In this document: piece after piece, positions 17,330 to 57,425 of the stretch | Layout: every line of letters begins with the position of its first letter | Position numbering within the stretch: position 1 is the stretch's first letter | NCBI GenBank assembly: GCA_964372135.1 | Contig: CAYJPS010000002.1 | Location: 1,979 to 65,978, forward strand | Reading direction: 5' to 3' | Length of the DNA stretch: 64,000 nucleotides | From: an uncultured Treponemataceae bacterium | Lineage (GTDB): Bacteria > Spirochaetota > Spirochaetia > Treponematales > Treponemataceae | The notes under the pieces: model-generated | What the model saw: the letters and a program-made list of their open reading frames with translations, nothing else | What the model was told of the DNA's origin: nothing | Database searches by the model: none | Made by a program: the position numbers and the translations under genes

Positions 17330-18194
17330 CTATTTTTTTGCATTAACCATTTTAATTATTCTTGCTCTTACCGGCTGTGCTACTATGCCAGACTTCACAA
17401 AAGAGATAGACCCACTAACTATTTTTGATGAAAATGCTACAATGTATGCACATGTAAAAATATCAGGAAATGAGGGTGTATTAGAAAACCTTATTCTTAA
17501 TAATATTGAGGGAATGGATGAAGACTCATTAGATACTATTCTTGAGCGAAGTCATTCACTGTATATTGCAGTTTTTGAGGAAACTGCAAGTACACCTGCA
17601 TATATTCAACTTGCACTTCAAGGCTCTTTTCCAGTATTATTTGTCAATGCCTCCCTCAACTCAAATAGGGGCTGGCAAAACCATAGTGCAGACATTGACG
17701 GTAGTACCTATAGGTACAAACAACATTCTACAGGAATAGAACTTGCAACTCTTTCTTCAAATCTCATTGTATTATCAAGCCACAATGTAAGCAGAATGCA
17801 AAACAGATTTATGAAATCCTTGTTTAATACCATTGTATTCCCTGTAGCCTACGATGAACAAGGTATAGCTAATTCAATCAACACATTATTTATGAATGAT
17901 TCATCAATTGCTTTTTATTTTCCTGAAGCTAAGTCTCTCATTTCATCTATGATTCCTATTCCCATTGAGCTTGCAGTTGATTATGCGTATGCATCTATAA
18001 CCATTATAGATGATGAAAACTTTTTGCTTTCGGTACAATTAAAAATGCAGGATGAAAGACTGGCAAGAGGAACCATGACATTGCTGTCTCTTGCACTACT
18101 TGGATCAAATATAAAAGCAGAGCTTCTAGAAGGCGGAATCATTGCACTCTCAGATTTACCTCTTAGCGCTACTTTTTTAGAAGAAATGTTTTAA
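17316..18194 (+). CDS. putative lipoprotein
   Basis: I place the start at TTG 17316, preceded by GGAGGA (17304-17309); it overlaps the ileS stop. The N-terminus (M)KKHNYFFALTILIILALTGCATM has lipobox LTGC. Confidence 0.6.
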   Translation: MKKHNYFFALTILIILALTGCATMPDFTKEIDPLTIFDENATMYAHVKISGNEGVLENLILNNIEGMDEDSLDTILERSHSLYIAVFEETASTPAYIQLALQGSFPVLFVNASLNSNRGWQNHSADIDGSTYRYKQHSTGIELATLSSNLIVLSSHNVSRMQNRFMKSLFNTIVFPVAYDEQGIANSINTLFMNDSSIAFYFPEAKSLISSMIPIPIELAVDYAYASITIIDDENFLLSVQLKMQDERLARGTMTLLSLALLGSNIKAELLEGGIIALSDLPLSATFLEEMF

Positions 18195-23113: not shown

Positions 23114-24607
23114 CTATTTATGTATAGTTGCATTTAAGCCAATTTCATAAATTTTTGTAGTTTTTAAGTCTTCTGGAAAATGCATTGCAAACCATGAAAT
23201 GTATGGTAATAGTGTGACAGCAAGTGCCTTTTTATCATTTGCATTTGGATTTTGTATGAGTTTTTTTAACTCATCACAATAATGCTCAACAAAACCCTCA
23301 GCTGGAAACGTACAGCTTTGTTTATGCGGCACAAAATCAGTTGCAAAGTTCTTTGAAACTACATTCCGTGTAGCAAAAAAATCGTCAAAATGTTTTTTGT
23401 AGTTTTGGAGAAGATGTGTCGTTTTTTCTCCCCCTACTGAAACAAGCTCTGTTCTAAACATTATTGAAGAGAATAAATTCTGGGTAGTACAAAGCTTAGT
23501 TGAACAAGCGTCAAATATCCTATCCATATAAATACCTTTTGCGTACATTTTTCCTTGAAGGTACGCAAAATCGCATCCTGCGCTTTCAATCTTCGTAAAG
23601 CCAGCTTGATTTGCAAAATTTAATGCAGCAAGGGTTACGGTACCTGCAGAACTACTGAATGTGGGAAAAAAACTTTTACTTGTTGCTTCTTCATACCAAT
23701 TGCTAATGTAGGAGCAAAGAGGATGTTCACTTTTAAAATAGCACAGAAGCCCTCCCTTATCCATAATACTCTTTGGCGCTATTGAATTGGCACATAAATC
23801 AAATGCAAATATTGTCGAAGCTTCTTTTTCACCCATATAATGGCTATACGATATGTGTTGTGCATCCACACTGATAACAACATCACACATAATTCCTTGC
23901 TCCCTTAGAGAGCTGTATGCAGTGTCAGTTGCAATAATAAAATATTTGTTTCTATTACTGTGAAGATTTGAATATGAAGTTTCTAAGCTTGGCCCAGCTC
24001 CTGCAATAAATGCTGTTTTATTAATAGGAAACGTTGTGTTATAAAAATCGATCAAGTTGTTATCACCGCATTGTTCACATATTTGTAAGTTTTGAAATAT
24101 ATTTCTATGCCACAGTTTTCCAAAGTGTGCTTGAACAGAAATATCTAATGAAATCTTTTCTAAAGTGCTTTTTACAATTGATTTTATTGATGAAAAATCA
24201 TCACCATTCACATCTACCCACGAACGAACAGGGTATAACGAAAAGTTTCCATCCAAGGGAGGATAGTACGAGTTTAATAATGTGAGCTCCAGCATGTCAA
24301 TTGTGCATAATATATAATCTGTTGAAATTTCTACACTATATTGAGATTTCAAAAAATCAATACTTTGGGAATTCTTTTCAACGACGATAATTTTATTGTT
24401 CGGAAAACGCTCTTTTACTTTTTGAACATGAATACCTGAAGTGTATCCTACAATGACTGTAAATCCTTCCTCAACCATTTGTGCAAATTGTTCGGCTTCT
24501 TTCGTGGGGTTGTATAAAGAACTTGCAGGCTTCTCACCTACGTAACAAGGAACCTTTTCACCAGTCTTTGCCGTTTTCCATGACTCATAACAAGAACTCA
24601 TACGCAT
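23114..24607 (-). CDS. motility-associated factor (Maf) / DUF115 MptE-like glycosyltransferase family protein
   Basis: The central motif KTAFIAGAGPSLE...YFIIATDTAYSSLREQGIMCDVVISVDAQH matches the Maf flagellin-glycosylation family core. It is paralogous to the upstream gene. Confidence 0.55.
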   Translation of the reverse strand: MRMSSCYESWKTAKTGEKVPCYVGEKPASSLYNPTKEAEQFAQMVEEGFTVIVGYTSGIHVQKVKERFPNNKIIVVEKNSQSIDFLKSQYSVEISTDYILCTIDMLELTLLNSYYPPLDGNFSLYPVRSWVDVNGDDFSSIKSIVKSTLEKISLDISVQAHFGKLWHRNIFQNLQICEQCGDNNLIDFYNTTFPINKTAFIAGAGPSLETSYSNLHSNRNKYFIIATDTAYSSLREQGIMCDVVISVDAQHISYSHYMGEKEASTIFAFDLCANSIAPKSIMDKGGLLCYFKSEHPLCSYISNWYEEATSKSFFPTFSSSAGTVTLAALNFANQAGFTKIESAGCDFAYLQGKMYAKGIYMDRIFDACSTKLCTTQNLFSSIMFRTELVSVGGEKTTHLLQNYKKHFDDFFATRNVVSKNFATDFVPHKQSCTFPAEGFVEHYCDELKKLIQNPNANDKKALAVTLLPYISWFAMHFPEDLKTTKIYEIGLNATIHK

Positions 24608-26148
24608 GCCGCCTCAACAATTTTGAAGCAAGCACTTAATGCTTCTTCTAGCTTTTCTTTGCAATCTTTTGACTGTGGATGTTTTTGTAATGCGAGCATT
24701 TCTGCAAGAGCGCAGTGTTCTAACCATTCATCACAAGGCGTCTCTTTTTGCATAGAAATAAATTTTTGCAAAAGTATTTTTCTACTTTTAGAATCCAAAA
24801 GAACCCTTTCATGCTTAAAGAAAATAGAGCTTTCATTATTTGAAGTACTATATGGAAAAGAAATACTTTCCCACGCAATGTCTTTTATATCGCCAAGAGT
24901 CTTAACATATTCGTCATTTGTCACTATCCTAAAAAATTTTTTTGAAAAGTCTTTGTTTCGAGTACTAAACCATTGACGATAGATATCCATCGGAGAAAGT
25001 TTTTCATTTCTATTTTGAAGCAAGGGCAAAGATATGCGAGATGACAAGGGCTTTAAGCGATAGTCATGAAGTGAATGAATTTTTTCATGCGCATTTGGCT
25101 GAGCATGTGAATATGTATTTCCAACAGATAAATCTAAACCAACCGAATAAACATTTTCGTCAGTTAAAGACAATGCAAAAACCGCTGCAGTTCCACTCAC
25201 AGTACCATTTCTCTCAGCATTCATTGCAGAAATATCGCAATATTTTAGCAGCCTTGCTTCTAAGCCGTCATTATACGTTAAGGGTATTATAGGGAACCTT
25301 TCCAGTATTTTTTTAGGAACATTTCCTTCTGCTGGAACGGCAAGAGGAATATGTATATTTCGCCTATGCAATTTTAGTAGAACATCTAAATGATTTTTTG
25401 CATAATATCCACCATCGGTCGAAATACACATATCGGGAATGATATCATTTTGAACCAAACATTCTAAAGCAGATGAAAGTGATATAACAAAAAATCTATC
25501 TTTGTATTCTTTTATGTGCCCAATAGATTTTTGTAATGTATAACCAGAAGCTATGAGAAGTATAGGTTTCTCGACTTTTTTTAACAACACACTGTTTTTT
25601 GTAAATATACAAAAATTAAACATATTTTTAAGCCATCTTTTAGAAAAATAGGACCTTGTTGCTAGTACATTATGTGTTTTTTGCAACAGCAAGCGTACTG
25701 TTTCCCATGCAATTATACTTTCATTGGAAAAATATGATGCGGCAGCTTTCCACTCAATTATGAGAGGAGCCGCTAGAACTATTTCGCCTAATTCTGAAAA
25801 AATTTCTTCGCAAAAGTTTTCTTTATGCGTAGAATGTGTGCATAAAAATGTTGCACTGCATTCATAGCTATTGTCTTTGAACGCTGTATATATTTCGTTG
25901 TTTTCACAAAAAAAAGAGTGATATTGCACATTATAGATTTGTGCATTTGGAAAGCGCATTTTTAAAAACGAGTTGCAATATGGAAGAGTACTCCCTAACA
26001 ATATTACACAAGAGGGTTCGTATGTACATTCAATTGATTCAACAAATTTTTCAGCTTCATTTTCAGGATTGTATGTAGAATGCAAAAAACGCCCATCAAC
26101 CGAACAGGTCACGCTAGCGTTTTTTGCGGTATCAAGGCGTATTTTCAT
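24598..26148 (-). CDS. motility-associated factor (Maf) / DUF115 family protein, second paralog
   Basis: PILLIASGYTLQKSI...FVISLSSALECLVQNDIIPDMCISTDGGYY has the same architecture with a degenerate G-x-G-P-S loop. It overlaps the downstream paralog by 10 nt. Confidence 0.5.
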   Translation of the reverse strand: MKIRLDTAKNASVTCSVDGRFLHSTYNPENEAEKFVESIECTYEPSCVILLGSTLPYCNSFLKMRFPNAQIYNVQYHSFFCENNEIYTAFKDNSYECSATFLCTHSTHKENFCEEIFSELGEIVLAAPLIIEWKAAASYFSNESIIAWETVRLLLQKTHNVLATRSYFSKRWLKNMFNFCIFTKNSVLLKKVEKPILLIASGYTLQKSIGHIKEYKDRFFVISLSSALECLVQNDIIPDMCISTDGGYYAKNHLDVLLKLHRRNIHIPLAVPAEGNVPKKILERFPIIPLTYNDGLEARLLKYCDISAMNAERNGTVSGTAAVFALSLTDENVYSVGLDLSVGNTYSHAQPNAHEKIHSLHDYRLKPLSSRISLPLLQNRNEKLSPMDIYRQWFSTRNKDFSKKFFRIVTNDEYVKTLGDIKDIAWESISFPYSTSNNESSIFFKHERVLLDSKSRKILLQKFISMQKETPCDEWLEHCALAEMLALQKHPQSKDCKEKLEEALSACFKIVEAACV

Positions 26149-28044: not shown

Positions 28045-28185
28045 AACCACTCCCATGGTATAATTTACATACATTTATATATCGGCACATTTGTTAAAAT
28101 AATTTAACTAAAAAAGTTTCTCTAATTTTCATTATACACTCTTTTTCTATTCAAGAAAACCCTAAAAAAGCCGAAAATTGAAAAT

Positions 28186-36257: not shown

Positions 36258-37481
36258 CTACCCTATCTTATCCTGAATAAATTTTTCATCTATATGATTC
36301 CTGTCTACAATAAACCCTGTTAAATTTGTTAAAAACGAAACTTCGTCTGCTTTTTTGAAATTGCGCGGAACTTTTTGTCCATCAGTAATATATGATACAG
36401 ATTTTTGCTTTTCATCTAAAACACTAATTACGGTACCCATTGTGTCAGTTTCATCCAACTTTGTAACGATAACGGAGTCGTATCCAAATGTCTCATACTG
36501 TTGCAAAATTGTTCTAAGATCATTAGCTTTTGTTGGCGCAGAAACAGTTAAAAATGTTTTTAACTTGTGTGCTTTTAAATCTAACTTTGTTCGCAATTTT
36601 GCTAAACTATCATAATCTTTAGGACTATGACCTGCTGTATCTATCAGTATTACATCAACATCCCTACCATACAGCGTTAACAAATTTTGTAAATCCTCTA
36701 TTGAATCTGCATATTCAACAGGAATCCCCATATGCAAGCCATAGGTTTCCAGTTGTTCTTTTGCTTGAACTCTAACATTATCAATTGTAATGAGGCGAAT
36801 ACTTAAACCTTTTGGAACACCGACATTCCCAATACCACTAAAATACGCTGCAAGCTTTGCTATGGTAGTTGTTTTACCAATACCAGTTGGGCCAACAAGT
36901 ACAATGATTTCTGGTCGCTCAGTTGTGGAAATATCTGTAATCTGAATTGATTCCCCTATCCAGTCAATTACCGTTTTTTGAATTAAGTCGAAGTCTTCTA
37001 AATCATCAATAGAAAATTCTTTTTTAATTCGTTCCGTAATTTTTTTAATATACTCAGGAGTAAAATCATTCCCCTCTAGCAATTGCTTAATTTTCACGAT
37101 TGAAGCTGGTTCATCTTGCTGATGCATATATACGTTATCAGTAATATGACTTCGTAGCTCTTGTATTTCATCCAAAATAAGCTTCATTTGTGGACTTTGA
37201 ACATTTTGATTTGCCTCAAGAATTTTAGTTCTTTCTTCGTTAAAATCCATTGGCTGCGTAGTTGGCAAGCCTTGAAATGGGCGTTTTTGTTCTGTTAATA
37301 AGGGTACGTACCAAACTGTGCATTGCTTTCGCTTAATAGGTCCGAAAATCTTTTCATACGACTCTTGTTTTCGAACTATTTTATAGTGCTCTCCGTAAAG
37401 CTCTTTTATTCGCTTTCTGCATGCTTCTTCTGTGTCTGCAATTATTTGAATAGGTTTTTGTGTAAATGCATCAGTTACCAA
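36258..37481 (-). CDS. flhF: flagellar biosynthesis SRP-type GTPase FlhF
   Basis: GPTGIGKTTTIAKLAA, DTAGHSP and TKLDET G-motifs. It overlaps the flhA stop. Confidence 0.9.
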   Translation of the reverse strand: MVTDAFTQKPIQIIADTEEACRKRIKELYGEHYKIVRKQESYEKIFGPIKRKQCTVWYVPLLTEQKRPFQGLPTTQPMDFNEERTKILEANQNVQSPQMKLILDEIQELRSHITDNVYMHQQDEPASIVKIKQLLEGNDFTPEYIKKITERIKKEFSIDDLEDFDLIQKTVIDWIGESIQITDISTTERPEIIVLVGPTGIGKTTTIAKLAAYFSGIGNVGVPKGLSIRLITIDNVRVQAKEQLETYGLHMGIPVEYADSIEDLQNLLTLYGRDVDVILIDTAGHSPKDYDSLAKLRTKLDLKAHKLKTFLTVSAPTKANDLRTILQQYETFGYDSVIVTKLDETDTMGTVISVLDEKQKSVSYITDGQKVPRNFKKADEVSFLTNLTGFIVDRNHIDEKFIQDKIG

Positions 37482-39552
37482 CTTTTATCTCTCCTAGATT
37501 TTCTAGCTTTATATCATTTGTTATTTCCGGAACCGAGATTACCACTAAGTTTGGCATTTCTCTTTCTGTGCTTGCTTTTACTAAGGCCCTTGCCTCTTCT
37601 GGACATAAAATAATTGGCATATACCCCTTGCCTTGTGAAAGTGCCACAGAAGAACTTAGGGCTGTAATCCAAGCACGTTGCAACATTGGATCTAAAGCTG
37701 CTATTGGACCATTAACTGTTTCAACTTTACTTTCAATTAATTTCTGTAAAAAGTCTTGGGCTACAGTTATTACATGCAATGTTTTATTTTCATCTGCATA
37801 TTGAAGACATATTTGCCTACCAAGCGCTTGACGAACTTTTTCAACAAGAATATCGGCTTTTTTTGTAACGGCACCAAAATCGGCGATAGTTTCAAAAATA
37901 ACAACCATATTTCTAACAGAAACCTGTTCTCTAAGCAGTCCTTGTAACACTTTTTGTATTTCGCCAATAGTAAATATTTTTGTTGCCTCTTCGACAGCAG
38001 TGGGATATTCTTTTTTTAGAGTATCAACAATTGACTGAACTTCTTGCCTTCCAAGAATTTCTGCTGCATGAGCTTTTATAAGCTCAGTTAAATGAGTTGC
38101 GATAATTGTTGGAGGGTCTACTACAGCATATCCTGCACGCTCTGCCCTATCCTTGTCTGCTTCTGAAACCCATATTGCGGGCAATCCAAATGCTGGATCT
38201 GTTGTTGATTCTCCTTGTAATTCTTCTGAAACCGTTCCTGTATTCATGCACATATATGATCCCATTCTAATACGGCTGGAACCAACTTCTATGCCTTTAA
38301 CTTTAAAACTATATGCATTTGGCTCTATGTGCATATTATCCGTAATACGAATTCTCGGAACAACAAGACCTAAATCTAGGGCAAACTCACGCCTGATTCT
38401 TGTTACACGCTCTAAGAGTTCTGCACCTTTTTCTTTGTCTACTAATGGAATCAAGGCTAAGCCCAATTCTAACGAAAGTGGATCTAATGGCACTACAGGA
38501 CTTATTTCTGCAATTGGTGTACCTTGAGTTTGTTGCATTTCTTTTTCTTTATTAAGTTTTGCTTCAAAAGATGCTTTTTCAAGTGACTGTAATCTTCTAC
38601 CAATAAAAAAGAGCGCTACGCCTATCGGTGTAAGTATATACCACGGAAAACCAGGAACCAATCCCATTAAGGCCATAGTAACACCTGAAACATAAAAAAC
38701 CCATGCATTTTGCGAAAATTGTTTTTGTATATCTGTTCCAAGAGTTGTTTTTCCATCGGACACTGACCGTGTAACAATAATACCAGTTGCAACCGAAATA
38801 AGGAGTGACGGGATTTGAGATAAAAGACCATCGCCAATGGTAAACTTTGCGAATATTTGAATAGCTGAAGCAAAATTTTCACCACTTGTCATACCAACTA
38901 TGACTCCACCTATAAGGTTGATAAGGGTTATAAAAATGCCTACTTTAACGTTACCCGAAACAAATTTCGTTGAACCGTCCATAGAACCATAGAAATCTGC
39001 TTCTCTTTGCACATCCGCTTTTCTAATTCTGGCTTCTTCTTCGGTAATTGCTCCTGAGTTATACTCTGCTTCAACAGCAGCTTGTTTCATAGGCATCGCA
39101 TCTAAGGTAAAGCGCGCTGCTACTTCCGCGATACGAGTAGCTCCCTTTGTAATAACGAAAGTTTGCACCGCAATAAGAATAATAAAGATAACCAGCCCTA
39201 TAACAAGACCCCTTGTTCCACCGGTTCCTACAACGAATGTTCCAAACGCGGTAACAAGTTGTCCCTTAAAGTCTGTACCATCCATAAGGATAAGACGTGT
39301 TGAAGACACATTAAGTGCTAAACTGAATACAGTAGAAACAAGCAATACTGTTGGAAAAGAGGAAAAATCTATTGCACGGGGGGTATACATAACTATTAAC
39401 AAGATTATCAGCGCAATCAAGAGATTAAGTGACATAAATGTATCAAGTAATATTGGTGGAAGAGGAATAATCAACATCATTATAACCGTAATTACTACAA
39501 TAGCAACTACTAAGTCTGAGCTTCTTCCAAAACGCTGTGCGACGTCAGCCAT
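37471..39552 (-). CDS. flhA: flagellar type III export apparatus protein FlhA
   Basis: 693 aa with an N-terminal 8-TM domain containing FPTVLLVSTVFSLALNVSSTRLIL and ITKGATRIAEVAARFTLDAMPMKQ, plus a cytoplasmic C-terminal domain. GGTGGG RBS. Confidence 0.97.
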   Translation of the reverse strand: MADVAQRFGRSSDLVVAIVVITVIMMLIIPLPPILLDTFMSLNLLIALIILLIVMYTPRAIDFSSFPTVLLVSTVFSLALNVSSTRLILMDGTDFKGQLVTAFGTFVVGTGGTRGLVIGLVIFIILIAVQTFVITKGATRIAEVAARFTLDAMPMKQAAVEAEYNSGAITEEEARIRKADVQREADFYGSMDGSTKFVSGNVKVGIFITLINLIGGVIVGMTSGENFASAIQIFAKFTIGDGLLSQIPSLLISVATGIIVTRSVSDGKTTLGTDIQKQFSQNAWVFYVSGVTMALMGLVPGFPWYILTPIGVALFFIGRRLQSLEKASFEAKLNKEKEMQQTQGTPIAEISPVVPLDPLSLELGLALIPLVDKEKGAELLERVTRIRREFALDLGLVVPRIRITDNMHIEPNAYSFKVKGIEVGSSRIRMGSYMCMNTGTVSEELQGESTTDPAFGLPAIWVSEADKDRAERAGYAVVDPPTIIATHLTELIKAHAAEILGRQEVQSIVDTLKKEYPTAVEEATKIFTIGEIQKVLQGLLREQVSVRNMVVIFETIADFGAVTKKADILVEKVRQALGRQICLQYADENKTLHVITVAQDFLQKLIESKVETVNGPIAALDPMLQRAWITALSSSVALSQGKGYMPIILCPEEARALVKASTEREMPNLVVISVPEITNDIKLENLGEIKVGN

Positions 39553-39632
39553 ATTCCCACCTACTGTTTGATATAGGATAAACCCCCATTTACCCTTGTA
39601 AGACGAGTATAAATTCCGACCTACTTTAAATA

Positions 39633-39641
39633 ATTATAACA
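39633..39641 (-). promoter_or_regulatory. possible extended -10 promoter for flhA
   Basis: Minus strand TGt-TATAAT about 80 nt upstream of the flhA ATG, at the inner edge of the inserted island. Confidence 0.35.
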
Positions 39642-39706
39642 TAGTTTGAAAATAAAATAAAGTAAAAAGTGAGTTTTTTTGTAAAAAAAGTGATTTTTTT
39701 TAGGGG

Positions 39707-39967
39707 TATCCGCAAGAATGACGCAAATTTTTTTATTGCGAATACCACTTGCCTATCATTCTGATTTTTTCACCACATCTATCCCCGTGAAGAATCTCCG
39801 TATCGGCGTAGAAAATTTTTATCTTTGCTTCTACCACTAAGATTGGTCATTATTTAATTCCTAATTCCCAATTCGTAATTAATTAAAATCTGCGGTTCCT
39901 TTTTCTCCCTCGCTTTACCCACCACCATTAGGAATTAGGCATTTATAATTTCTAATTAATTTATTCG
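39707..39967. repeat. family 1 repeat mosaic (C-like, module A copy 1, module B copy 1)
   Basis: atccgcaagaatgacgcaaattt. Module A at 39743-39850. Module B at 39856-39939 (aattcct aattccc aattcgt aattaatt aaaatctgcggttcctttttctccctcgctttacccaccacc attaggaattagg). Confidence 0.8.
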
Positions 39968-39978
39968 TCCTAAAAAGC

Positions 39979-40851
39979 TTAAAAGGAGGAAGTATTAAAA
40001 TAACGGATAGCACGAACGGCTTCTGTTTTGTCTTTCTCTCCGTAGGTCAGAGCGCCAGAGTAGAAATTCTGCCCATACATAAGATTATCCTGTTGCTCAG
40101 ACGACGACCAAAGAGTTCGAGTTTCGAATATATATTCTGGCACTCTTGCATTTGTGTATGCCTGTTGAAGTTCTTCTATTGTCGGCAAATACCAATCCGT
40201 AAAATCACCACCATCATAATCCTTTGCAATACTGATACTGTTGGAGTTATGGGTTTCATGAAACATACCACTTGCTTGATACCAATTATACTCACCTAGA
40301 TTATCACTTATTTCTTTATACTCACTGGTAGTACTGTCTGCATAAAAAATTATACCGCCGCCCGGACCTGTGTCACCTATCTTATACACGACAGTGAGCA
40401 ATGTAGCTATATACAAAGAATTTTCGCCTTCTACCATTTTTTTAGTTTTAGAGCGACCTTCTTTTATCTCACCATCCTGTTCTACTCGCACCTTTGCATA
40501 CACTATTTTTCCTACGATTGCAAGGTTGTCAAATATAACACTTTCATCTTCTTTTACTACCAGCGTTTTACTTATAATTACACTATCATTACCTGCATTG
40601 TGTAAACTTAACGTCATCTCAATACCATCGTCGTCAAAATCTATTGAACGTGTAAGGCCTATATTTTCATGACCACTTCCATTATAAGAGGCAGCTTGTA
40701 CACTGTCGTTTTTTAAAAATTCTTCAAGGGCGCTTTTACTTACCTTAAAGGTTATGTCAGTTGTTTCTTTTACGCTCCAAAGTGAATCGCAACTTATTAG
40801 TACGATTACTGCCATTACAAAAAGGGCTACTAAAAATAGTCTTTGTTTCAT
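39979..40851 (-). CDS. lipoprotein, shared N-terminal module plus DUF1566 (Lcl C-terminal)-like domain
   Basis: MKQRLFLVALFVMAVIVLISCDSLW has lipobox LISC. The C-terminus GPGGGIIFYAD...FTDWYLPTIEELQQAY...LWSSSE...VRAIRYF follows the DUF1566 pattern. GGAG RBS. Confidence 0.65.
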   Translation of the reverse strand: MKQRLFLVALFVMAVIVLISCDSLWSVKETTDITFKVSKSALEEFLKNDSVQAASYNGSGHENIGLTRSIDFDDDGIEMTLSLHNAGNDSVIISKTLVVKEDESVIFDNLAIVGKIVYAKVRVEQDGEIKEGRSKTKKMVEGENSLYIATLLTVVYKIGDTGPGGGIIFYADSTTSEYKEISDNLGEYNWYQASGMFHETHNSNSISIAKDYDGGDFTDWYLPTIEELQQAYTNARVPEYIFETRTLWSSSEQQDNLMYGQNFYSGALTYGEKDKTEAVRAIRYFNTSSF

Positions 40852-40888
40852 ATTTTCTCCAAAAAAACTTTTTACCTATTTTTTATAT

Positions 40889-40916
40889 ATTATGTAGTAT
40901 ACCGCATGACTGTAAA
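40889..40916 (-). promoter_or_regulatory. sigma70-type promoter of lipoprotein gene a
   Basis: Minus strand TTTACA (40911-40916), 16 nt, CATAAT (40889-40894). The same arrangement is conserved at 42884-42911. Confidence 0.5.
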
Positions 40917-40980
40917 TTATTCTACATTTTTGCAAAATATGTCGTAGAATTTTACATTTTTTACGATTAAAGAACGCAAC

Positions 40981-41654
40981 TACCACTTGCCTGTCATTCT
41001 GATTTTTTCACCACATCTATCCCCGTGAAGAATCTCCGTATCGGCGTAGAAAATTTTTATCTTTGCTTCTACCACTAAGATTGGTTATTTTTAAACCACA
41101 GATTATTTTATAATTCCTAATTCGTAATTAATTAAAATCTGCGGTTCCTTTTTCTCCCTCGCTTTACCCACCACCATTAGGAATTAGACATTGCGAATCA
41201 GAAATTAATCTACCACCAAGATTGGTCAGGTGTTATCCACAGATTACACAGATTACGCAGATTATTATCTGTCGCATTTTGAACTACTCTTACATTTACC
41301 ACAAAAAATTTATAAGTCAAAACTATTTATAGTTTTGTCACGAATTTGTCTTTACGCTTTGTTAAAAATTACATAGCACGTTTCAATAGAAATCCCATTA
41401 ATCCTTTAATCTGTGGTTAAAACTTCTCCCTCGCTTTACTCGCACCATTAGGAATTATGCATTGCGAATCAGGAATTAATCTCCCACCAAGATTGGTCAG
41501 GTGTTATCCACAGATTATTTTATAATTCCTAATTCCTAATTCCCAATTCGTAATTAATTAAAATCTGTGGTTCCTCTTTCTCCCTCGCTTTACCCGCCAC
41601 CATTAGGAATTATGCATTGCGAATCAGGAATTAATCTCCCACCAAGTCTGATTA
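40981..41654. repeat. family 1 repeat mosaic: module A copy 2, three module B copies and one full composite element
   Basis: Module A at 40981-41088 (2 mismatches versus 39743-39850). Module B at 41112-41229, 41407-41499 and 41524-41654. A C/D interior lies at 41230-41406. Confidence 0.85.
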
Positions 41655-42848
41655 AGGCGCAGCAGAACGAGCCACTCGAAAACCAACGGACGCATCCCGA
41701 AAGGTAGGCACATTGTTGACGCGGTTGCTTACGGTCAAATTATTTTCAGTATTGTTCCAATGTCCGCCACGATACACACGGTTCGTAGAGCCAGCAAGCG
41801 GCGTGTCATAACACCATTCCCACACATTACCACTCATGTCATACAAGCCTAAGGCGTTGGCATTTCCGGTTTTTTCAGTCGGTAAACTTTCATTCCTTCC
41901 TGCTGTTCCAACTATATGTGTTGTAGCATTTGCATTATCCTTATACCATGCATAGCTTCCTAAGTCAGTGTCTGTACCAGCATAGATGGTACGTTCTTTT
42001 GCTGCTCCATCAAGACTAAACCCACCATGTCCAGCTGCGTATTCCCATTCCCTTTCTGTTGGTAAGCGGTAGCCTGTTCCGCCTATTATGGTTCCGTCTG
42101 ATTCATAATAAGGGCTTAAATTTTCTTTTTCACTTAGCGTATTACAAAACTCTACCGCATCATTCCAACTTACATTATATGCAGGTTTATTATCTCCAAG
42201 TCCTTTTTCCAAAGTTGGGTCAGCTCCGGGCCATGTTCCCATTACATCTAGCCACTGACCCTGCGTTACCTCGGTTTCACCTAGGTTAAAATTTGCGACT
42301 ATGACGTTTTCTTGTAGAGCTACATTACCACCAGCTGTTCCTTGAAACATGTATGTGCCACCTGGTATGCCTATTAACTTTCCAACCGTTGAACTTTCAA
42401 TATCTATAGGTACTAAGCCACCAAATACAAACTCAAGTCTATTAAGTCCTTCTTTTACAACAATGGAATCAGATTTTTCAATTCGTGGCTTGTATCCCTC
42501 GTGCATAAACTCTATTTGTGCATACACGGCTTCCCCCACAATGTATAGTTTTTCAAATGTTATAGTGTCGCTAAGAGAATCTCCAAGGTACACTGTTTGT
42601 TTAGCCCAAACCTCATCGGTATTTGCATTGTGTATAGATACTGTGGCACTAATGCTTGTATATAGTCCTGCACGAGACATGCTTTGCACGCTTGCCCTTT
42701 CTTCTTCAAATTCCTCGAGCCATTCTTGCGGAATGGTAAAGCTAATTTCAACTGGCTTTTCTGCTTTATGATCCCAGAGCGAATCACAACTTGTTAGTGC
42801 GAATACTGCTATTACAAAAAGAGACACTAAAAATACATTTTGTTTCAT
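41652..42848 (-). CDS. lipoprotein, shared N-terminal module plus formylglycine-generating-enzyme (FGE/SUMF1)-type C-lectin-fold domain
   Basis: MKQNVFLVSLFVIAVFALTSCDSLW. The C-terminal domain has GYRLPTEREWEYAAG, LGLYDMSGNVWEWCYD, RVYRGGHW and VGFRVARS. Confidence 0.8.
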   Translation of the reverse strand: MKQNVFLVSLFVIAVFALTSCDSLWDHKAEKPVEISFTIPQEWLEEFEEERASVQSMSRAGLYTSISATVSIHNANTDEVWAKQTVYLGDSLSDTITFEKLYIVGEAVYAQIEFMHEGYKPRIEKSDSIVVKEGLNRLEFVFGGLVPIDIESSTVGKLIGIPGGTYMFQGTAGGNVALQENVIVANFNLGETEVTQGQWLDVMGTWPGADPTLEKGLGDNKPAYNVSWNDAVEFCNTLSEKENLSPYYESDGTIIGGTGYRLPTEREWEYAAGHGGFSLDGAAKERTIYAGTDTDLGSYAWYKDNANATTHIVGTAGRNESLPTEKTGNANALGLYDMSGNVWEWCYDTPLAGSTNRVYRGGHWNNTENNLTVSNRVNNVPTFRDASVGFRVARSAAP

Positions 42849-42883
42849 ATCTTCTCCAAAAAAAAATTACATATTTTTTATAT

Positions 42884-42911
42884 ATTATGTAGTATAACGT
42901 ATTACTGTAAA
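42884..42911 (-). promoter_or_regulatory. sigma70-type promoter of lipoprotein gene b
   Basis: Minus strand TTTACA (42906-42911), 16 nt, CATAAT (42884-42889). It lies within a ~118-nt block shared with 40852-40970. Confidence 0.5.
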
Positions 42912-42980
42912 TTATTCTACATTTTTGCAAAGTATATCGTAGGAATTTTACACTTTTTAGGGTAAAAAAATGACACAAAC

Positions 42981-43245
42981 AGCCACCACTAAGACTGGTC
43001 ATTATAATTCCTAATTCACAATTCGTAATTAATTAAAATCTGCGGTTCCTTTTTCTCCCTCGCTTTACCCACCACCATTAGGAATTAAGCATTGCGAATC
43101 AGGAATTAATCTCCCACCAAGATTGGTCATGAATCATCCGCAAGAATTACGCAGATTTTTTTTCGAAGGCGTGGACTGTTGGATTTGCTACGAAGATTGT
43201 TGTGATTGTATAAAGGTTTTATCCGCAAATGTACGCAGATTTTTA
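42981..43245. repeat. family 1 repeat mosaic (junction motif, module B copy 5, two C-like motifs)
   Basis: agccaccactaagactggtcat. Module B at 43006-43130. atccgcaagaattacgcagatt and atccgcaaatgtacgcagatt. Confidence 0.8.
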
Positions 43246-43334
43246 CTTTTTCATGTAGTAAAAACTTTTTTATGCGCTACGAGGATTTGGTTTTTTAAGT
43301 GAGGTGTTGTTTTTCGAGTACAAAAAAGGCACGT

Positions 43335-43375
43335 TTCAAAATACAATTGCAAGGGCAAGCACCGTGCTGTACCCT
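43335..43375 (-). terminator. possible terminator after the LRR lipoprotein gene
   Basis: Imperfect hairpin agggcaagcac-cg-tgctgtaccct (43352-43375). On the minus strand it is followed by tgcaattgtattttg. Confidence 0.35.
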
Positions 43376-43389
43376 CACAATTGTTATGC

Positions 43390-45201
43390 TTACTTTTCTT
43401 GTATCTTTGCTGAGTGGACACTCCAACCTTGTGCACCTTGATAAGCATCACCACTACCTGCAGGTACATAAATAGTGGTTAAAGCTGTAGCTCCATCAAA
43501 TGAGTCAGTTTGCAAAGCAGGAGGAACAGGATCCCTAAGGGTAACTGTTTCTAAACTAGTACAGCCCATAAAAGCAGACTGATTAATACTTTTAACACTA
43601 GAAGGAATATCGATACTTGTTAAACCTGTATTCTGAAATGCAAAATTATCAATACTTGTAACATTAGTGGGGAGAATTATGCTTGTTAATTTTTCACAAC
43701 CCACAAATGCTCTTATACCTATGCTTGTAACACTTGAAGGAATTATTACATTAGTTAGTCCTGTACAACCTGAGAAAGTGGCCTCTCCAATACTTGTAAC
43801 CCCTAAAGGAATTTCTATACTAGTTAGTCCTGTACAACCTGAAAAAGCTGCAACACCAATATTTGTGACACTAGAAGGTATATCTATATTTGTTAACTCT
43901 GTACAATCTGCAAATGCACTACTACCAATACTTGTAACACTAGAAGGTATATCTATACTTGTTAAACCCGTATTCTTAAATGCACTACCACCAATACTCG
44001 TAACTCCAAAAGGAATAGCAAAGTGTTCATCAGTTTTAGAGGGCAGATACAGAACTAAGCTTTTATTTTTACCTTTTGTGTAAATAACATTATCAATTGC
44101 TTCAAACGTAGCATTTTTTGGATGTACAGTTATTTTTTGTATTCCTGAATCCTGCACAATAAAACTACCAATACTTGAAACAGTACTGGGTATACTTATC
44201 TCTGTTAAACTCGTGCAATTATAAAATGCATAATCCCCAAGAATTTTAAGACCTTCATTTAGAATAACACTCCTAAGGTTAGGCGTATTTGAAAATGGCT
44301 CATCCTTAAGTTCCACAATAAACTCGGAAAAAATGATGCTATTTATTGCTGTATTGTCTTCAAAAGCAAAAGTACTTATAGAAGTTATTGGTTTACCCTT
44401 ATATACAGGGGGTATTATAACATCTGCATCACTATCAGTATTATAACCAATAGTTAGTTCATCTGGTCCATTATCCTCAACCTCTAATTCCGTGTACTCC
44501 CCGGGGTTTGCCCATCGTGCATAGAGGGTATCGCTTTCGGTTACTTCGTATGGGAACACTACCCAGTCGTTTCCATTTCTTGTTTTTGTCCAACCTAAGA
44601 AAAACTCTTTGTCACTTGGAACAGTCATAGAAGCACTTTCGCCTGGTAGTGTCGCTTTTTCTAAGTGTAATACCGATTGAGTATCCACTGCATCGATTCC
44701 ACCGTTTGAATCAAAACTTAATTTCCAAGTAACTTTTTCTGCTTCTCCCATGTCAAACGTAACGGGATTATTACCTTCAACTACCGTAAGAGGGTCTGAT
44801 TTTCTACTTCTTGATAAGTGCCCATATTGCGTAAGCTCTACTTGTACATACACGGTACTTCCCACAATATACAAAGGTTGAAAGCGTATGCTTTCATTAA
44901 GATTGTTTCCAAGATTTACCGCTTGCTCTGCTAAAACGGCTCCTGTTTCTGCATCTTGAATGGATGCTTTAGCGGTAATGCTTGTGTTTACACTTGCCCT
45001 TTGGAGGCTTTGCCCACCTGAAGCACGTTGCGCCTGTTGTACAGCCTCTGCTTCTTCTACAAAAGAATCTAGCCACTCTTGAGGAATAGTAAAGCTAATT
45101 TCAACCGCTTCTTTATTTTCGTGTTCCCAAAGTGAATCGCAACTAAAAAATGCAAACACTGCCATAATAAAAAGAGACACTAAAAATGCTTTTTGTTTCA
45201 T
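43390..45201 (-). CDS. lipoprotein, shared N-terminal module plus BspA-type leucine-rich-repeat (LRR_5) surface protein
   Basis: I set the start at ATG 45201 (GGAGGA 4 nt upstream): MKQKAFLVSLFIMAVFAFFSCDSLW. The C-terminal half holds ~10 tandem ~23-aa repeats IPSSVTSIG.SAF.GCT.LTSI. The 51-codon extension in the ORF track lacks support. Confidence 0.8.
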   Translation of the reverse strand: MKQKAFLVSLFIMAVFAFFSCDSLWEHENKEAVEISFTIPQEWLDSFVEEAEAVQQAQRASGGQSLQRASVNTSITAKASIQDAETGAVLAEQAVNLGNNLNESIRFQPLYIVGSTVYVQVELTQYGHLSRSRKSDPLTVVEGNNPVTFDMGEAEKVTWKLSFDSNGGIDAVDTQSVLHLEKATLPGESASMTVPSDKEFFLGWTKTRNGNDWVVFPYEVTESDTLYARWANPGEYTELEVEDNGPDELTIGYNTDSDADVIIPPVYKGKPITSISTFAFEDNTAINSIIFSEFIVELKDEPFSNTPNLRSVILNEGLKILGDYAFYNCTSLTEISIPSTVSSIGSFIVQDSGIQKITVHPKNATFEAIDNVIYTKGKNKSLVLYLPSKTDEHFAIPFGVTSIGGSAFKNTGLTSIDIPSSVTSIGSSAFADCTELTNIDIPSSVTNIGVAAFSGCTGLTSIEIPLGVTSIGEATFSGCTGLTNVIIPSSVTSIGIRAFVGCEKLTSIILPTNVTSIDNFAFQNTGLTSIDIPSSVKSINQSAFMGCTSLETVTLRDPVPPALQTDSFDGATALTTIYVPAGSGDAYQGAQGWSVHSAKIQEK

Positions 45202-45267
45202 ATTGTCCTCCAAAGTAACTACAATAAAGTATAACGCAGTACTGAAATAAATTCCAGATTTTGGACA

Positions 45268-45276
45268 ATTATAGCA
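45268..45276 (-). promoter_or_regulatory. possible extended -10 promoter of lipoprotein gene c
   Basis: Minus strand TGc-TATAAT about 65 nt upstream of the ATG. Confidence 0.35.
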
Positions 45277-45357
45277 TAGAAAAATAAGTCTATCATGTGC
45301 CATTTGGCACATTTTTAAAGGAATTTTGCACTTTTTACGGTAAAAAAATGACACAAA

Positions 45358-45630
45358 CAGCCACCACTAAGACTGGTCATGTTTTATCCACAGATTACAC
45401 AGATTAGGCAGATTACAACTATTGCGTATTCGACAACCCTAACATCTGCCACCAAAATAGTAAAAGCAAAACTAGTTATAGTTTTGTCACGAATTTGTCT
45501 TTACATTTTATTAAAATTTCTGTAGAACGTTCCAATAGAAATCCCACTAATCTGTGCAATCTGTGGTTCCTTTTTCTCCCTCGCTCTACCCGCACCATTA
45601 GGCATTTCTAATTCGTAATTAGGAATTAAT
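45358..45630. repeat. family 1 composite repeat element abutting and overlapping the flhB stop
   Basis: In order: gccaccactaagactggtcat, atccacagattacacagattaggcagatt, a ~120-nt interior similar to 41290-41400 and 13920-14030, aatctgtgcaatctgtggttcctttttctccctcgctctacccgcaccattagg, then a heptamer arm. Confidence 0.8.
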
Positions 45631-46725
45631 TGTCTTTCCTTTCATTGCATAGATCTTGCTTAAAATCGTGGCCAGTACCGTATAATATGTTTCAGGAATA
45701 ATATCGCCAACTTCTACATTGGCATACAAGGCGCGCGCCAAGGGTCGGTTTTCTATCATTGGAACATCGTTCTCTGTTGCTAAGCGTTTAATTTGTTGCG
45801 CAAGTTCATCCTGACCTTTTGCGGTGACCATTGGTCCCTGCATTGTATCTCTTTCATATAAAATTGCAATAGCAAAGTGAGTCGGGTTGGTAATAATAAC
45901 ATCTGCTTTGGCAACATTTTCTCTAATGCTATTTTGTAACAGTTCCCGCATAAATTGCTTTAGCTTACTTTTTACAAGAGGATCCCCTTCAAGGGTTTTA
46001 TATTCTTCTTTTACTTCTTGCTTAGTCATTTTTAATGAATCAATAAATTGCTTACGCTGCACTAAATAATCCGGAATAGCAATGCCCATAAAAATAAAGG
46101 TAGCAATTAATAATATTTTTGCCGCCATTTGCGCTATGTGCGTAATTCCTTGCCATAGGTTTTGATCTAAGAGCGACAGTAGCGTGGGTAAATCCGAAGA
46201 AATAACTGTATAAGATGCTATAAAAATAACGACTACTTTTAATATTGATTTAAATATATTAAATACGCCTTCAAAAGAAAACATTGTTTTTTTAAAATAT
46301 TCGCCAAATTTGGGAATAATTTTAGAAAACTTTGGCTCTATAGGTTTTGTTGAAAAAATAAAACCTCTATTTTGAATTAGATTTGCTAATATAGCACCAA
46401 TAATCGCGGTAATAACTATCGGAGTTACCATTCTAATTAAATAATAAAAAAAACCGTAAGCAAGACTCGCGTTTATTTCTGCTGTAGTGCTAATTTGAAA
46501 ATAGTATAATAGGATTTCAAGAAAATTTGTAAACAACCATGGAGCTAGAATAATCAGCGCAATAGTGGGAAAAAGCATTACAAGAGCAGCACTTAACTCT
46601 TGACTTTTGGCAACTCGGCCTTCTTCTCTAGCTTTACGAAGCTTATGCTCGGAAGGATCTTCTGTTCGACCTTCATCTTCTGCTGCAAACCATTGTAAAT
46701 CTAAATCTTCTGAATAAAAACTCAT
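45619..46725 (-). CDS. flhB: flagellar type III export apparatus switch protein FlhB
   Basis: 368 aa with the N-terminal EKTEDPSEHKLRKAREEG-type motif (GRTEDPSEHKLRKAREEGRV), 4 TM helices and the autocleavage site NPTH (VIITNPTHFAIAI). Confidence 0.95.
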   Translation of the reverse strand: MSFYSEDLDLQWFAAEDEGRTEDPSEHKLRKAREEGRVAKSQELSAALVMLFPTIALIILAPWLFTNFLEILLYYFQISTTAEINASLAYGFFYYLIRMVTPIVITAIIGAILANLIQNRGFIFSTKPIEPKFSKIIPKFGEYFKKTMFSFEGVFNIFKSILKVVVIFIASYTVISSDLPTLLSLLDQNLWQGITHIAQMAAKILLIATFIFMGIAIPDYLVQRKQFIDSLKMTKQEVKEEYKTLEGDPLVKSKLKQFMRELLQNSIRENVAKADVIITNPTHFAIAILYERDTMQGPMVTAKGQDELAQQIKRLATENDVPMIENRPLARALYANVEVGDIIPETYYTVLATILSKIYAMKGKTINS

Positions 46726-53615: not shown

Positions 53616-53813
53616 CTACAGTTCGTTTTTAAACGCGCCAATAAGGCGTCTATATGAAATAATTTTTTCAATTATTTCTTCAGGTGTATTTTTAACCACC
53701 AATTTTTTACCAGATAACATCATAAAAGTTACATCGGGATTTGTCTCAATGTATTCAATTTGATGCGGGTTAATCCAATAGGTTTTACCATCTAAACGCA
53801 TTACTTCTATCAT
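53616..53813 (-). CDS. flbD: flagellar protein FlbD
   Basis: I set the start at ATG 53813: MIEVMRLDGKTYWINPHQIEYIETNPDVTFMMLSGKKLVVKNTPEEIIEKIISYRR. This matches the FlbD family pattern, and the ORF-track N-terminal extension is not needed. Confidence 0.8.
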   Translation of the reverse strand: MIEVMRLDGKTYWINPHQIEYIETNPDVTFMMLSGKKLVVKNTPEEIIEKIISYRRLIGAFKNEL

Positions 53814-53897
53814 ATCTATTTTCCACTCTAATCCCAATACAGTCAAGTACTTTTTTGTAATTTTTTGCATTTTTTTCAAAAAAAAGTGCCTATTTAT

Positions 53898-53925
53898 TTA
53901 TCGGAACAAAAAATATACGCCTTTA
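53898..53925 (-). promoter_or_regulatory. candidate sigma-28-type promoter upstream of flbD
   Basis: Minus strand TAAA (53922-53925), 16 nt, TCCGATAA (53898-53905), compared with the consensus TAAA-N15-GCCGATAA. It lies about 85 nt upstream of the flbD ATG. Confidence 0.35.
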
Positions 53926-53999
53926 GAGTATTATGGAAACTATTTTCTTGATAATCATGCTTTAATAGCATAAGGCGCCTTATATACTGGGTGTTCAAT

Positions 54000-54098
54000 T
54001 TTCATCAAAGGTGTCTAGCAGCGGATATACAGGATTAAACAGGATAATGATTTATATGTACTAAAAAAGCATCCTTTATATCCTGTTCATCTGTGGCT
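54000..54098. repeat. ~100-nt dispersed intergenic repeat (family 2), copy 2
   Basis: Matches 487-585 and includes a tandem acaggat duplication. Confidence 0.7.
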
Positions 54099-54148
54099 AA
54101 ATTTAGTTTGTATTTAAATTGAGTTTACAGCCTCATATAACACTCTTA

Positions 54149-54177
54149 TTGACATAAGCAAATTATTTTGATATTAT
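54149..54177 (+). promoter_or_regulatory. sigma70-type promoter of the 54219 lipoprotein gene
   Basis: TTGACA (54149-54154), 17 nt, TATTAT (54172-54177), with a ~35-nt leader carrying GGAGG. Confidence 0.6.
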
Positions 54178-54218
54178 GCGATATTGCTTTGTTTTATTAT
54201 TACATTTTGGAGGTAAAT

Positions 54219-54893
54219 ATGAACAAAAATACTTTATCAATTGGCAGACGATTTGTGCTCTTTGGATTATTAATTGCCGTAATCTTTTCTTTAACAGGGT
54301 GCTTAGGAATGCCTGAGTTTGAAGATGTTGACTACGAAGTTGAGCCAACACAAAACAAGCTTCATAGCTTACGTTACTACGGACGAGACCTTGATGCAGA
54401 AGAAAAAACTGTAGCGGTTATTGAACCTGCTCTTTTAGACACCTCAACAGAGGATTATGGATATTATTTCCTTGAATATGGTTATTCACGAGACAGTTCT
54501 TTGATTTACCAGTCAATGTATACGCTCTTTTTTCCTCTTCTTATCTTAACACCAGTAGGGCTTCCAACAGACTCAGCTGAATATGAAACATACGTTTCAT
54601 TAGCAATTTTTGATTCAAATGGAGATCTTGTTCAACGTTATTCAAAAACTGATTCATTCAAGCAAACAGCTGGTATGTACTACGGTTGGTATATGACTGA
54701 CAACAGACTTTCAGAATCTTTCTCTGGGTTAATTCAAGAAGTTATTGAAATGGCTTCAAGAAATAGTGATGAAATCAATGAAACATTAGAACTCATCGGC
54801 CCTATCAATGCAGAAAACAGATCTGCTGCTACTAAGAACTTAGAAGCATATATCTTCGAAAAAGATGTATACATTCACGACGAAGATAAATAA
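54219..54893 (+). CDS. putative lipoprotein
   Basis: Start at ATG 54219 (GGAGG 6 nt upstream): MNKNTLSIGRRFVLFGLLIAVIFSLTGCLG with lipobox LTGC. Confidence 0.65.
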   Translation: MNKNTLSIGRRFVLFGLLIAVIFSLTGCLGMPEFEDVDYEVEPTQNKLHSLRYYGRDLDAEEKTVAVIEPALLDTSTEDYGYYFLEYGYSRDSSLIYQSMYTLFFPLLILTPVGLPTDSAEYETYVSLAIFDSNGDLVQRYSKTDSFKQTAGMYYGWYMTDNRLSESFSGLIQEVIEMASRNSDEINETLELIGPINAENRSAATKNLEAYIFEKDVYIHDEDK

Positions 54894-57162: not shown

Positions 57163-57425
57163 TTCCTAATTTTTGCGTATACCACAAAGACTGGTCATTA
57201 TATATCCACAGATTAAAGGATTACGCAGATTTTTATTTTTGAGTGCTTAAAATTTATTATGCTCACCACAAAAAACTAAAAAAATTATATTATTATTGTA
57301 AAGGAATCTCACTATGAAGATAACATCTCTGTAGCACTGTCAAATAAAAATCCCATAAATCTGTGTAATCTGTGGTTCCCTTTCTTCCTTGCTCTACCCA
57401 CCCGCCAGATTCGTATTCATGAATT
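57163..57425. repeat. family 1 composite repeat element between the convergent helicase and 57428 genes
   Basis: In order: taattcctaatt (contains the helicase stop), taccacaaagactggtcat, atccacagattaaaggattacgcagatt, an interior, then aatctgtgtaatctgtggttccctttcttccttgctctacccacc. Confidence 0.7.

Follow-up and report, generated by a model that had tools for sequence, protein, structure and literature searches.

In spirochaetes, even the central gene block for flagellar type III export is open to interruption. In a 64,000-nt stretch of DNA (the window) from an uncultured Treponemataceae bacterium (GenBank assembly GCA_964372135.1, contig CAYJPS010000002.1, positions 1,979 to 65,978 of the forward strand), the export genes flhB and flhA lie exactly 6,066 nt apart (39553-45618), and the gap between them holds three co-oriented lipoprotein open reading frames (ORFs), here called LipA, LipB and LipC, together with 2,184 nt of non-coding DNA consisting mostly of repeats. 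Comparison with related genomes indicates that this island is a secondary, lineage-specific insertion that was built in at least two steps. We put at about 0.75 the probability of the account as a whole, namely that a stepwise islet of resident lipoprotein cassettes and of repeats resembling miniature inverted-repeat transposable elements (MITEs) accumulated in an already permissive spacer. The islet is a case of operon plasticity, not a new kind of system, and current understanding of flagellar biology is unchanged by it.

In the characterised spirochaete and Bacillus operons flhB and flhA are adjacent, and in many other bacteria, for example Helicobacter and Campylobacter, the two genes are unlinked. 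A single FlhA scan of a species-representative genome collection returned 61 loci (given L numbers below), 54 of which have both genes on the same strand. Across these 54 Treponemataceae loci the flhB-flhA spacer has a median of 44.5 nt and lies between -10 and 368 nt in 53, the single exception being L061, where a spacer of 2,393 nt holds one lipoprotein gene of the same family. The closest relatives of the window are uncultured Treponemataceae metagenome-assembled genomes (MAGs) with an FlhA identity of 86-92% and spacers of 80-368 nt; in the group of T. lecithinolyticum, Treponema sp. OMZ 840 and Treponema sp. HNW the spacers measure -6 to 12 nt and carry no promoter, and in more distant treponemes the genes are 9-60 nt apart. 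The three-gene arrangement is present in none of the relatives' loci. Since the spacer does not exceed 368 nt outside L061, the island appears to be a secondary and lineage-specific insertion, as the initial annotation of the window had proposed, and the comparison with relatives that it had suggested as a check bears this out. Adjacency is the predominant arrangement in the family, though not an absolute one, for flhB is not upstream of flhA in three Treponemataceae MAG loci. L002 (1-1670) has a lipoprotein gene and adk upstream of the conserved flhA leader described below, and in L035 and L046 (~8400-10000) the genes upstream of flhA are divergent; if these contigs are not chimeric, flhA stands at the head of a separate operon in all three. 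Because other genes precede flhA in these loci, the accompanying premise that the island interrupts a stoichiometry-sensitive operon is weaker than claimed.

Outside the island the locus keeps the gene order of the spirochaete motility operon (T. pallidum, T. denticola, B. burgdorferi) and of the Bacillus fla/che operon, with flbD through flhB followed by flhA-flhF-flhG. Unlike in those operons, 6.07 kb of unrelated genes and repeats part flhB from flhA, and the clade has a conserved promoter and leader before flhA. The tight packing described earlier for both flanks is borne out, as is the estimate of a 6.07-kb gap with ~2 kb of repeats: gaps do not exceed 85 nt in the upstream run flbD-motA-motB-fliL-fliM-fliY-fliO/Z-fliP-fliQ-fliR-flhB, every gene of which has an NCBIfam or Pfam match, and flhA, flhF and flhG are joined by an 11-nt overlap and then a 3-nt gap. 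After flhG come orf273, a FliA-like sigma factor and FapA, and throughout this part of the window the genes are encoded by the minus strand. Read along transcription, and with H, H', T and X standing for repeat modules described below, the gap leads from the flhB stop codon through H', T, the LipC promoter, LipC, a unique 3' flank and a 27-nt repeat to H, the LipB promoter, LipB, H, H'+T, H and X, and then through the LipA promoter, LipA, H, X, the 27-nt repeat again and the leader to flhA (Table 1).

It is the comparison with L061 that points to more than one step. The L061 gene encodes an N-domain 81% identical to that of LipC, and both of its flanks are homologous to LipC's. Its downstream flank aligns with window positions 43294-43136 and then jumps to 39707-39553, the leader, thereby skipping 3.43 kb (39708-43135). 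This LipB+LipA block, which only the present genome has in addition, is bounded by direct repeats of 27 nt and contains, besides the two genes, H'+T, four copies of H and two of X; it is therefore an additional insertion in this lineage. A neighbour-joining tree of FlhA and FlhF places the window as sister to L061 and L004, of which L061 has one gene at the site and L004 none. The flanks of L061 and L004 are 95-99% identical and their inserts unrelated, and thus the site appears to turn over between very close genomes; their leaders are 99% identical, as against 91.7% for flhA. The contig of another relative, L005, starts 8 nt upstream of the conserved leader, which is 96.6% identical to the leader in the window (L005 1-129 against 39553-39670) while FlhA is only 89% identical, a pattern that suggests either an assembly break at repeats or a recent exchange of the leader region.

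These observations can be arranged into a history. The clade ancestor first gained the flhA promoter and leader, comprising an A/T tract, an extended -10 (TGnTATAAT), two hairpins and a ribosome-binding site (RBS), as the comparison of relatives shows. In several lineages H' and T repeats then came to lie immediately behind the flhB stop codon, giving the order flhB-H'-T-leader-flhA of L004 and L001; such empty sites, in which only H' and/or T separate the flhB stop codon from the leader, are found in L004, L001 and L016. Next, a self-contained cassette that combines its own promoter with a lipoprotein N-domain and a C-terminal module of variable type entered upstream of the leader, a step to which the flanks shared with L061 attest. 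The extra 3.43 kb followed, bringing the LipB and LipA cassettes, the duplicated X module, another H'+T block and H in four full copies. Mechanistically, homologous recombination between dispersed repeat copies inside the genome, together with allelic replacement between relatives through the conserved flhB and flhA flanks, probably produced these changes, apparently with no dedicated mobility enzyme involved.

It is possible that the island is instead ancestral to the clade and has been deleted repeatedly, in which case the short spacers of the relatives would be derived. Loss is plausible at the small distance between L061 and L004, of which just one has a cassette, and the repeats would promote deletions. 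However, eight close lineages and all outgroups have no cassette, the short outgroup spacers bear no repeat scars, and the LipB+LipA block is confined to one genome and bounded by a direct repeat; an ancestral island would require many independent clean losses. We consider an ancestral island quite unlikely, and stepwise gain the better description of the locus.

Why an insertion at this site was tolerated may be explained by the leader. The last ~120 nt before flhA are conserved in 11/11 close-clade loci, with or without an island, and the spacer upstream of them is unalignable. In order, the conserved stretch comprises the A/T tract, CTTTATTTTATTTTC, TATG[T/A]TATA[A/C]T, hairpin 1, hairpin 2 and AGGTGGGAAcATG, and the element does not occur in outgroups with 9-12-nt spacers. 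Since the leader is found in relatives regardless of the island but not in outgroups, the extended -10 promoter and leader arose in the clade ancestor and predate the insertion. That flhA could already rely on a conserved promoter of its own is probably why the insertion was tolerated, and this order of events suggests that an internal promoter and leader of flhA, arising first in the clade, made the spacer a safe landing site. The initial annotation had placed the extended -10 at the position at which we find it (TGTTATAAT, 39641 to 39633 on the minus strand) and had left it undecided whether flhA-flhF-flhG are transcribed from it or by read-through across the lipoprotein genes. Its conservation argues for the first alternative: flhA-flhF-flhG(-orf273-fliA-fapA) are most likely transcribed mainly from this promoter, and read-through from LipA or flhB is possible as well.

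The leader may also have a function at the level of RNA. The pairing of hairpin 2 is kept by compensatory changes at 4/9 pairs, and this hairpin, which has no Rfam match, is the only strong one of the GGGG-loop type in the 64-kb window. All 12 of the 12 Treponemataceae lineages with a spacer have a GGGG-loop hairpin 20-70 nt before the flhA start, built on at least six different stems; for this comparison each sequence was folded separately, and MAFFT set the loops out of register. It is found upstream of flhA also in L018, L060, L021/22, L059, L020, L019 and L049, directly behind TGTGATATAAT in L018 and L060. The conserved hairpin is thus a candidate regulatory element, and it may represent an undescribed cis-regulatory or mRNA-stabilising element.

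The lipoprotein genes would themselves be independent transcription units, possibly with read-through from the flagellar operon. All three are preceded by an RBS of GGAG type and by a sequence that resembles a sigma-70 promoter, in agreement with the earlier statement that each has its own RBS and promoter-like sequence. The number of promoter-like matches in the region (25, against 21.7 +/- 4.8 in shuffles) is not above chance, and support for the Lip promoters therefore comes from conservation between paralogues and orthologues, not from the match to a consensus. Upstream of LipC stands a palindrome, TGTGCCAAATGGCACA (45296-45311; CRP/FNR-like TGTGN-N6-NCACA), centred ~42 nt before the inferred transcription start; it is conserved before related genes, exactly in L062 (9899-9914) and as GAGCCATTTGGCACA in L061 (~655-675). 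Both X modules contain a sigma-28-like CAAA-N16-GCCGATAC (39801-39830 and 41039-41068), ~250 nt before flhA and ~190 nt before LipA, respectively. A better sigma-28-like sequence, TAAA-N16-GCCGATAT, occurs elsewhere in the window at ~28080-28106, before a 636-aa ORF that is followed by two MptE/Maf-like genes (23114-26148), and GCCGATA is found 8 times where 2.8 are expected.

Such an arrangement could mean that the Lip proteins are new members of the flagellar operon, for example accessory proteins of a periplasmic flagellar collar or sheath, that are co-transcribed with it and kept at this position by selection. In favour of such a role, the genes share the orientation of the operon, a sigma-28-like motif precedes LipA, and neither the interval from flhB to LipC nor that from LipA to flhA has a canonical intrinsic terminator, only weak terminator-like sites having been found. 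However, the closest paralogues reside at unrelated, non-flagellar loci with their own promoters of the same type (L062 by an OmpA gene, L064 by a permease), the C-terminal modules are of adhesin or lectin type and have been exchanged from one species to another at this one site, and most sister species have no Lip gene there. A flagellar role appears highly improbable.

The proteins belong to a modular family that seems to be at home in this clade. A lipoprotein signal peptide, MKQ..FLVSLF..[LF][TIF]SC|DSLW, with its n- and h-regions and lipobox Cys is common to all three, as are the SCDSLW lipobox and an N-terminal domain (N-domain) of ~150 aa with 35-54% identity. For LipC, the start was set at ATG 45201 (603 aa), where the signal peptide MKQKAFLVSLF... 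lies behind a GGAGGA RBS and with which the family alignment agrees; a mechanical ORF of 654 aa and the public call of 637 aa both extend upstream (45202-45354) across LipC's own promoter. An exhaustive profile search of 1.84 billion representative proteins with the N-domain found the family, consisting of only 41 clusters of proteins of 142-2,224 aa, whereas a word-indexed protein search was empty and a scan of JGI metagenomes gave a signal-peptide match only. The lipobox Cys is invariant across the 41 clusters and the domain is N-terminal in every member, followed by C-terminal modules that include Flg_new, FGE-sulfatase, LRR_5, DUF285, CHB_HEX_C_1, Lcl_C and beta-helix. An AlphaFold2 model of the N-domain (pLDDT 84) shows a helix and a seven-strand beta sandwich, for which Foldseek against the PDB returned only generic Ig/FnIII-like beta sandwiches, all with E>0.03. 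The Lip proteins are probably surface or periplasmic binding lipoproteins in which a beta-sandwich stalk bears a head that resembles an adhesin or a lectin. For the annotation of spirochaete MAGs, this adds an as yet unannotated modular lipoprotein family, recognisable by the SCDSLW lipobox and the beta-sandwich N-domain.

The heads of LipC and LipB have known relatives. The LRR_5 array of LipC, which forms a 69-nt periodic array at 43585-44017 (TRF), is shared with the BspA/LrrA/TpLRR surface proteins and matches solved leucine-rich repeat proteins including T. pallidum TpLRR (6MLX, E=1e-28); unlike those proteins, LipC has the clade-specific N-domain, which is not in Pfam. The best solved relative of the LipB C-terminal domain is TvpA (2Y3C, E=6e-22), the two aligning through a ...RGG.W...GFR... 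region that is hypervariable in TvpA, but LipB has a different N-terminal stalk, and the window holds no template repeat, reverse transcriptase or accessory gene. The Asn-rich C-terminus of LipB (window 41652-41800), ...RGGHWNNTENNLTVSNRVNNVPTFRDASVGFR..., is the part that aligns with the hypervariable region of TvpA. Against PorK/GldK/GldJ, which are also FGE-sulfatase lipoproteins, LipB scores far below the equivalog cutoffs.

At the orthologous site, LipC (43390-45201) carries LRR_5 where the L061 gene (746-2557) carries DUF285, and the difference between the two, on a conserved N-domain and conserved flanks, appears to be a module replacement. The nearest FGE-type paralogue of LipB (P0005, L064) shares neither flanks nor repeats with it, and no donor locus for LipB was found. 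Base composition and codon usage, a comparison of which had been suggested as a check, do not set the island genes apart from their surroundings: their GC contents of 0.372, 0.422 and 0.373 compare with 0.361 +/- 0.021 for the host, and GC3 and codon-usage distance are within the host range. The genes therefore appear to have originated within the genome or clade, as resident clade-specific modular lipoprotein genes and not as foreign DNA.

Exact repeats of at least 25 nt in the 64-kb window (203 k-mers) all touch the island, the longest measuring 92 nt, which is far beyond chance. H is a hairpin element of ~110-140 nt whose A/T-rich stem measures 18 bp and whose purine-rich centre is conserved, T an element of ~200 nt with terminal inverted repeats (TIRs) of ~27 nt, and X a 120-nt module whose two copies have a 92-nt exact stretch in common (39756-39847 = 40994-41085). 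H is confined to the island within the 64 kb (6/6 copies), T has four copies in the window, those other than the copy after flhB lying at 41212-41423, 13846-14045 and 57181-57379, and more H and T copies are found in L001, L004, L016 and L062. The T copy at 13846-14045 is located immediately upstream of tRNA-Pro(TGG) (13633-13705), and that at 57181-57379 between the gene of a UvrD-like helicase and a 165-aa ORF convergent with it, where it is preceded by an H-core-like GGTGGGTAGAGCAAGGAAGAAAGGGAACC. Both H and T are small, non-coding and present in multiple copies with TIRs of 18-27 nt, and are MITE-like in these respects. Like the Neisseria Correia, enterobacterial REP/BIME/ERIC and pneumococcal BOX/RUP families, they are intergenic elements of 110-210 nt with TIRs and stable hairpins, occurring in several diverged copies that often start right after stop codons. 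Unlike those families, they are composite and mosaic, and neither a target-site duplication nor a transposase in the window could be matched to them: the flanks of the H and T copies are conserved module sequence. The H hairpins have no U-tracts, and a comparison of island and leader with Rfam gave no match even at E<=5. H and T thus add a repeat family not described before, one that breaks assemblies at the flhB-flhA locus and that annotators of spirochaete MAGs may encounter.

Each Lip gene is followed by a hairpin repeat of ~110-140 nt, much as genes are followed by attC sites in integron cassettes, and chromosomal integrons whose attC sites reach 132 nt are known from Treponema species (PMC3607928). 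It is therefore conceivable that the island was acquired horizontally as a mobile element, be it an integron array, a remnant of an integrative and conjugative element or phage, or a diversity-generating retroelement (DGR), by site-specific recombination, all the more so because the closest solved relative of LipB, TvpA, is the variable protein of a T. denticola DGR. The window largely refutes this scenario. Pfam and NCBIfam scans of all window ORFs of at least 110 aa found no integrase, transposase or reverse transcriptase, and no tyrosine recombinase or intI is present in the 64 kb. The island resembles the Treponema arrays (PMC3607928) in its tandem, co-oriented genes, each with an imperfect palindrome of ~110-140 nt behind it, but it has no intI, no AAC/GTT cores and no attC similarity, its cassettes have their own promoters, and H follows flhB as well. 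No H copy contains attC cores (RYYYAAC/GTTRRRY), no properly spaced pairs of them occur in the island, and a comparison of H with eight T. denticola attC representatives gave no significant match, the best being 13 nt to 'denti5' (E=0.72, chance level). On these grounds an integron cassette array was ruled out. A DGR locus, considered on account of the TvpA match, is unsupported, as the 3' end of LipB has no second copy as a template repeat in the window or loci and the window ORFs have no reverse transcriptase domain; it is possible that a DGR elsewhere in the genome acts on LipB in trans. A foreign genomic island was likewise ruled out by host-like GC content and codon usage, by the lack of mobility genes in the window and by the position of the only tRNA 26 kb away. 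Horizontal acquisition of a mobile island appears extremely unlikely, and the assembly of the islet from resident cassettes and repeats is the explanation that we retain.

A more far-reaching scenario is that the flhB-flhA spacer is a diversification hotspot, in which H and T serve as portable sites of recombination for the capture, duplication and swapping of modules of the clade-specific surface-lipoprotein family, placement in the flagellar operon couples adhesin expression to motility-gene transcription, and the GGGG-loop hairpin exerts an undescribed post-transcriptional control over flhA-flhF-flhG-fliA. The exchange of LRR_5 in this genome for DUF285 in L061, on the same N-domain and between the same flanks, would be its example. 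Taken jointly, these propositions strike us as unlikely.

Several points weigh against the stepwise account. One is that the island could be an artefact, the assembler having threaded flhB to flhA through dispersed repeats and thereby drawn in cassettes from elsewhere in the same or a co-occurring genome. The locus comes from a single 72,928-nt SPAdes-type contig of a MAG, exact repeats of 68-92 nt inside the island are longer than typical SPAdes k-mers, and contigs of related MAGs break at this very spacer, as in L005. However, reads of 150 nt would span the repeats, the copies of which are 4-20% diverged overall; all three genes are co-oriented with the operon and host-like in codon usage; and L061, which was assembled independently, has a family member at exactly the same site with flanks homologous to LipC's. 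L061 thus supports a real insertion site, only the internal order being in doubt, and while an artefact that created the island is very unlikely, the order or copy number of cassettes and repeats within it could be mis-resolved. Furthermore, no target-site duplications or recombination enzymes were identified in the window, and the mechanism of insertion has been arrived at by elimination. As for the LipC-type cassette, its distribution could reflect an ancestral gain followed by loss in L004 or an exchange between lineages. The sigma-28-like motif of the X module at 39801-39830, although of uncertain significance, could be an additional feed for flhA. Finally, the activity of the promoters, the boundaries of the transcripts and the localisation of the lipoproteins have all been inferred.

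Table 1. Features of the flhB-flhA region in order of transcription (window coordinates).
Feature	Position	Strand	Remarks
flhB	45619-46725	-	TIGR00328, 377 bits (cutoff 349); Pfam Bac_export_2; last gene of the flbD...flhB block
H' half-copy	45556-45630	-	starts at flhB stop; nhmmer E=2e-13; same junction in L001, L016, L004
T element	45363-45570	-	terminal inverted repeats CCACAGATT.CACAGATTAG / ...AATCTGTGG
Putative LipC promoter and 5'UTR	45205-45362	-	ATGATA-17-TATAAT with TG (45268-45296); RBS GGAGGA; palindrome TGTGCCAAATGGCACA; upstream homologues in L061, L062
LipC	43390-45201	-	shared N-domain and BspA-type LRR_5, 245.9 bits (cutoff 27.7), 8.9e-74
LipC 3' flank	43163-43389	-	common to the L061 single-gene island; pairwise alignment; BLAST 90% over 63 nt
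27-nt direct repeat, upstream copy	43136-43162	-	AAAAAAATCTGCGTAATTCTTGCGGAT; resembles right end of T element
H full copy	43003-43142	-	nhmmer 2e-36; RNA fold -31 kcal/mol, z=-2.5
Putative LipB promoter and 5'UTR	42849-43002	-	TTTACA-16-CATAAT at 42884-42911; 85% identity to LipA upstream region
LipB	41652-42848	-	shared N-domain and FGE-sulfatase/C-type-lectin-fold domain (PF03781), 120.9 bits (cutoff 23.3), 9.8e-35
H full copy	41528-41667	-	~20 nt after LipB stop codon
Second H'+T block	41212-41484	-	79% identity over 270 nt to the block after flhB
H full copy	41103-41241	-	repeat search
X module, copy 1	40976-41095	-	contains CAAA-N16-GCCGATAC (sigma-28-like)
Putative LipA promoter and 5'UTR	40852-40975	-	TTTACA-16-CATAAT at 40889-40916; RBS GGAG
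LipA	39979-40851	-	shared N-domain and Lcl_C (DUF1566-like, PF07603), 36.6 bits (cutoff 34.9), marginal
H full copy	39854-39992	-	after LipA stop codon
X module, copy 2	39738-39857	-	92-nt exact stretch in common with copy 1
27-nt direct repeat, downstream copy	39708-39734	-	end of the 3.43-kb block not in L061
Putative ancestral flhA promoter and leader	39553-39707	-	A/T tract, extended -10, two hairpins, RBS; conserved in 11/11 close relatives
Extended -10	39633-39641	-	TGTTATAAT; 80 nt before flhA ATG; TATG[T/A]TATA[A/C]T in 11/11 clade loci
Leader hairpin 1	39598-39624	-	variable sequence
Leader hairpin 2, GGGG loop	39575-39596	-	GGTAAA-TGGGGG-TTTACC
flhA RBS	39555-39562	-	AGGTGGGA
flhA	37471-39552	-	TIGR01398, 820 bits (cutoff 772); heads flhA-flhF-flhG-orf273-fliA-fapA

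Further upstream, the flagellar block begins at flbD (window 53616-54167), beyond which lies a divergent gene (54168-54893). The genes flgD and flgE do not precede flbD here, as they presumably do in the fla operon of T. pallidum and T. denticola. On the other side of the island, at window 17256-18194 and adjoining an isoleucyl-tRNA synthetase-like gene, is a homologue of TP0453, the outer-membrane-associated lipoprotein of T. pallidum (PF20740, 1.3e-27).

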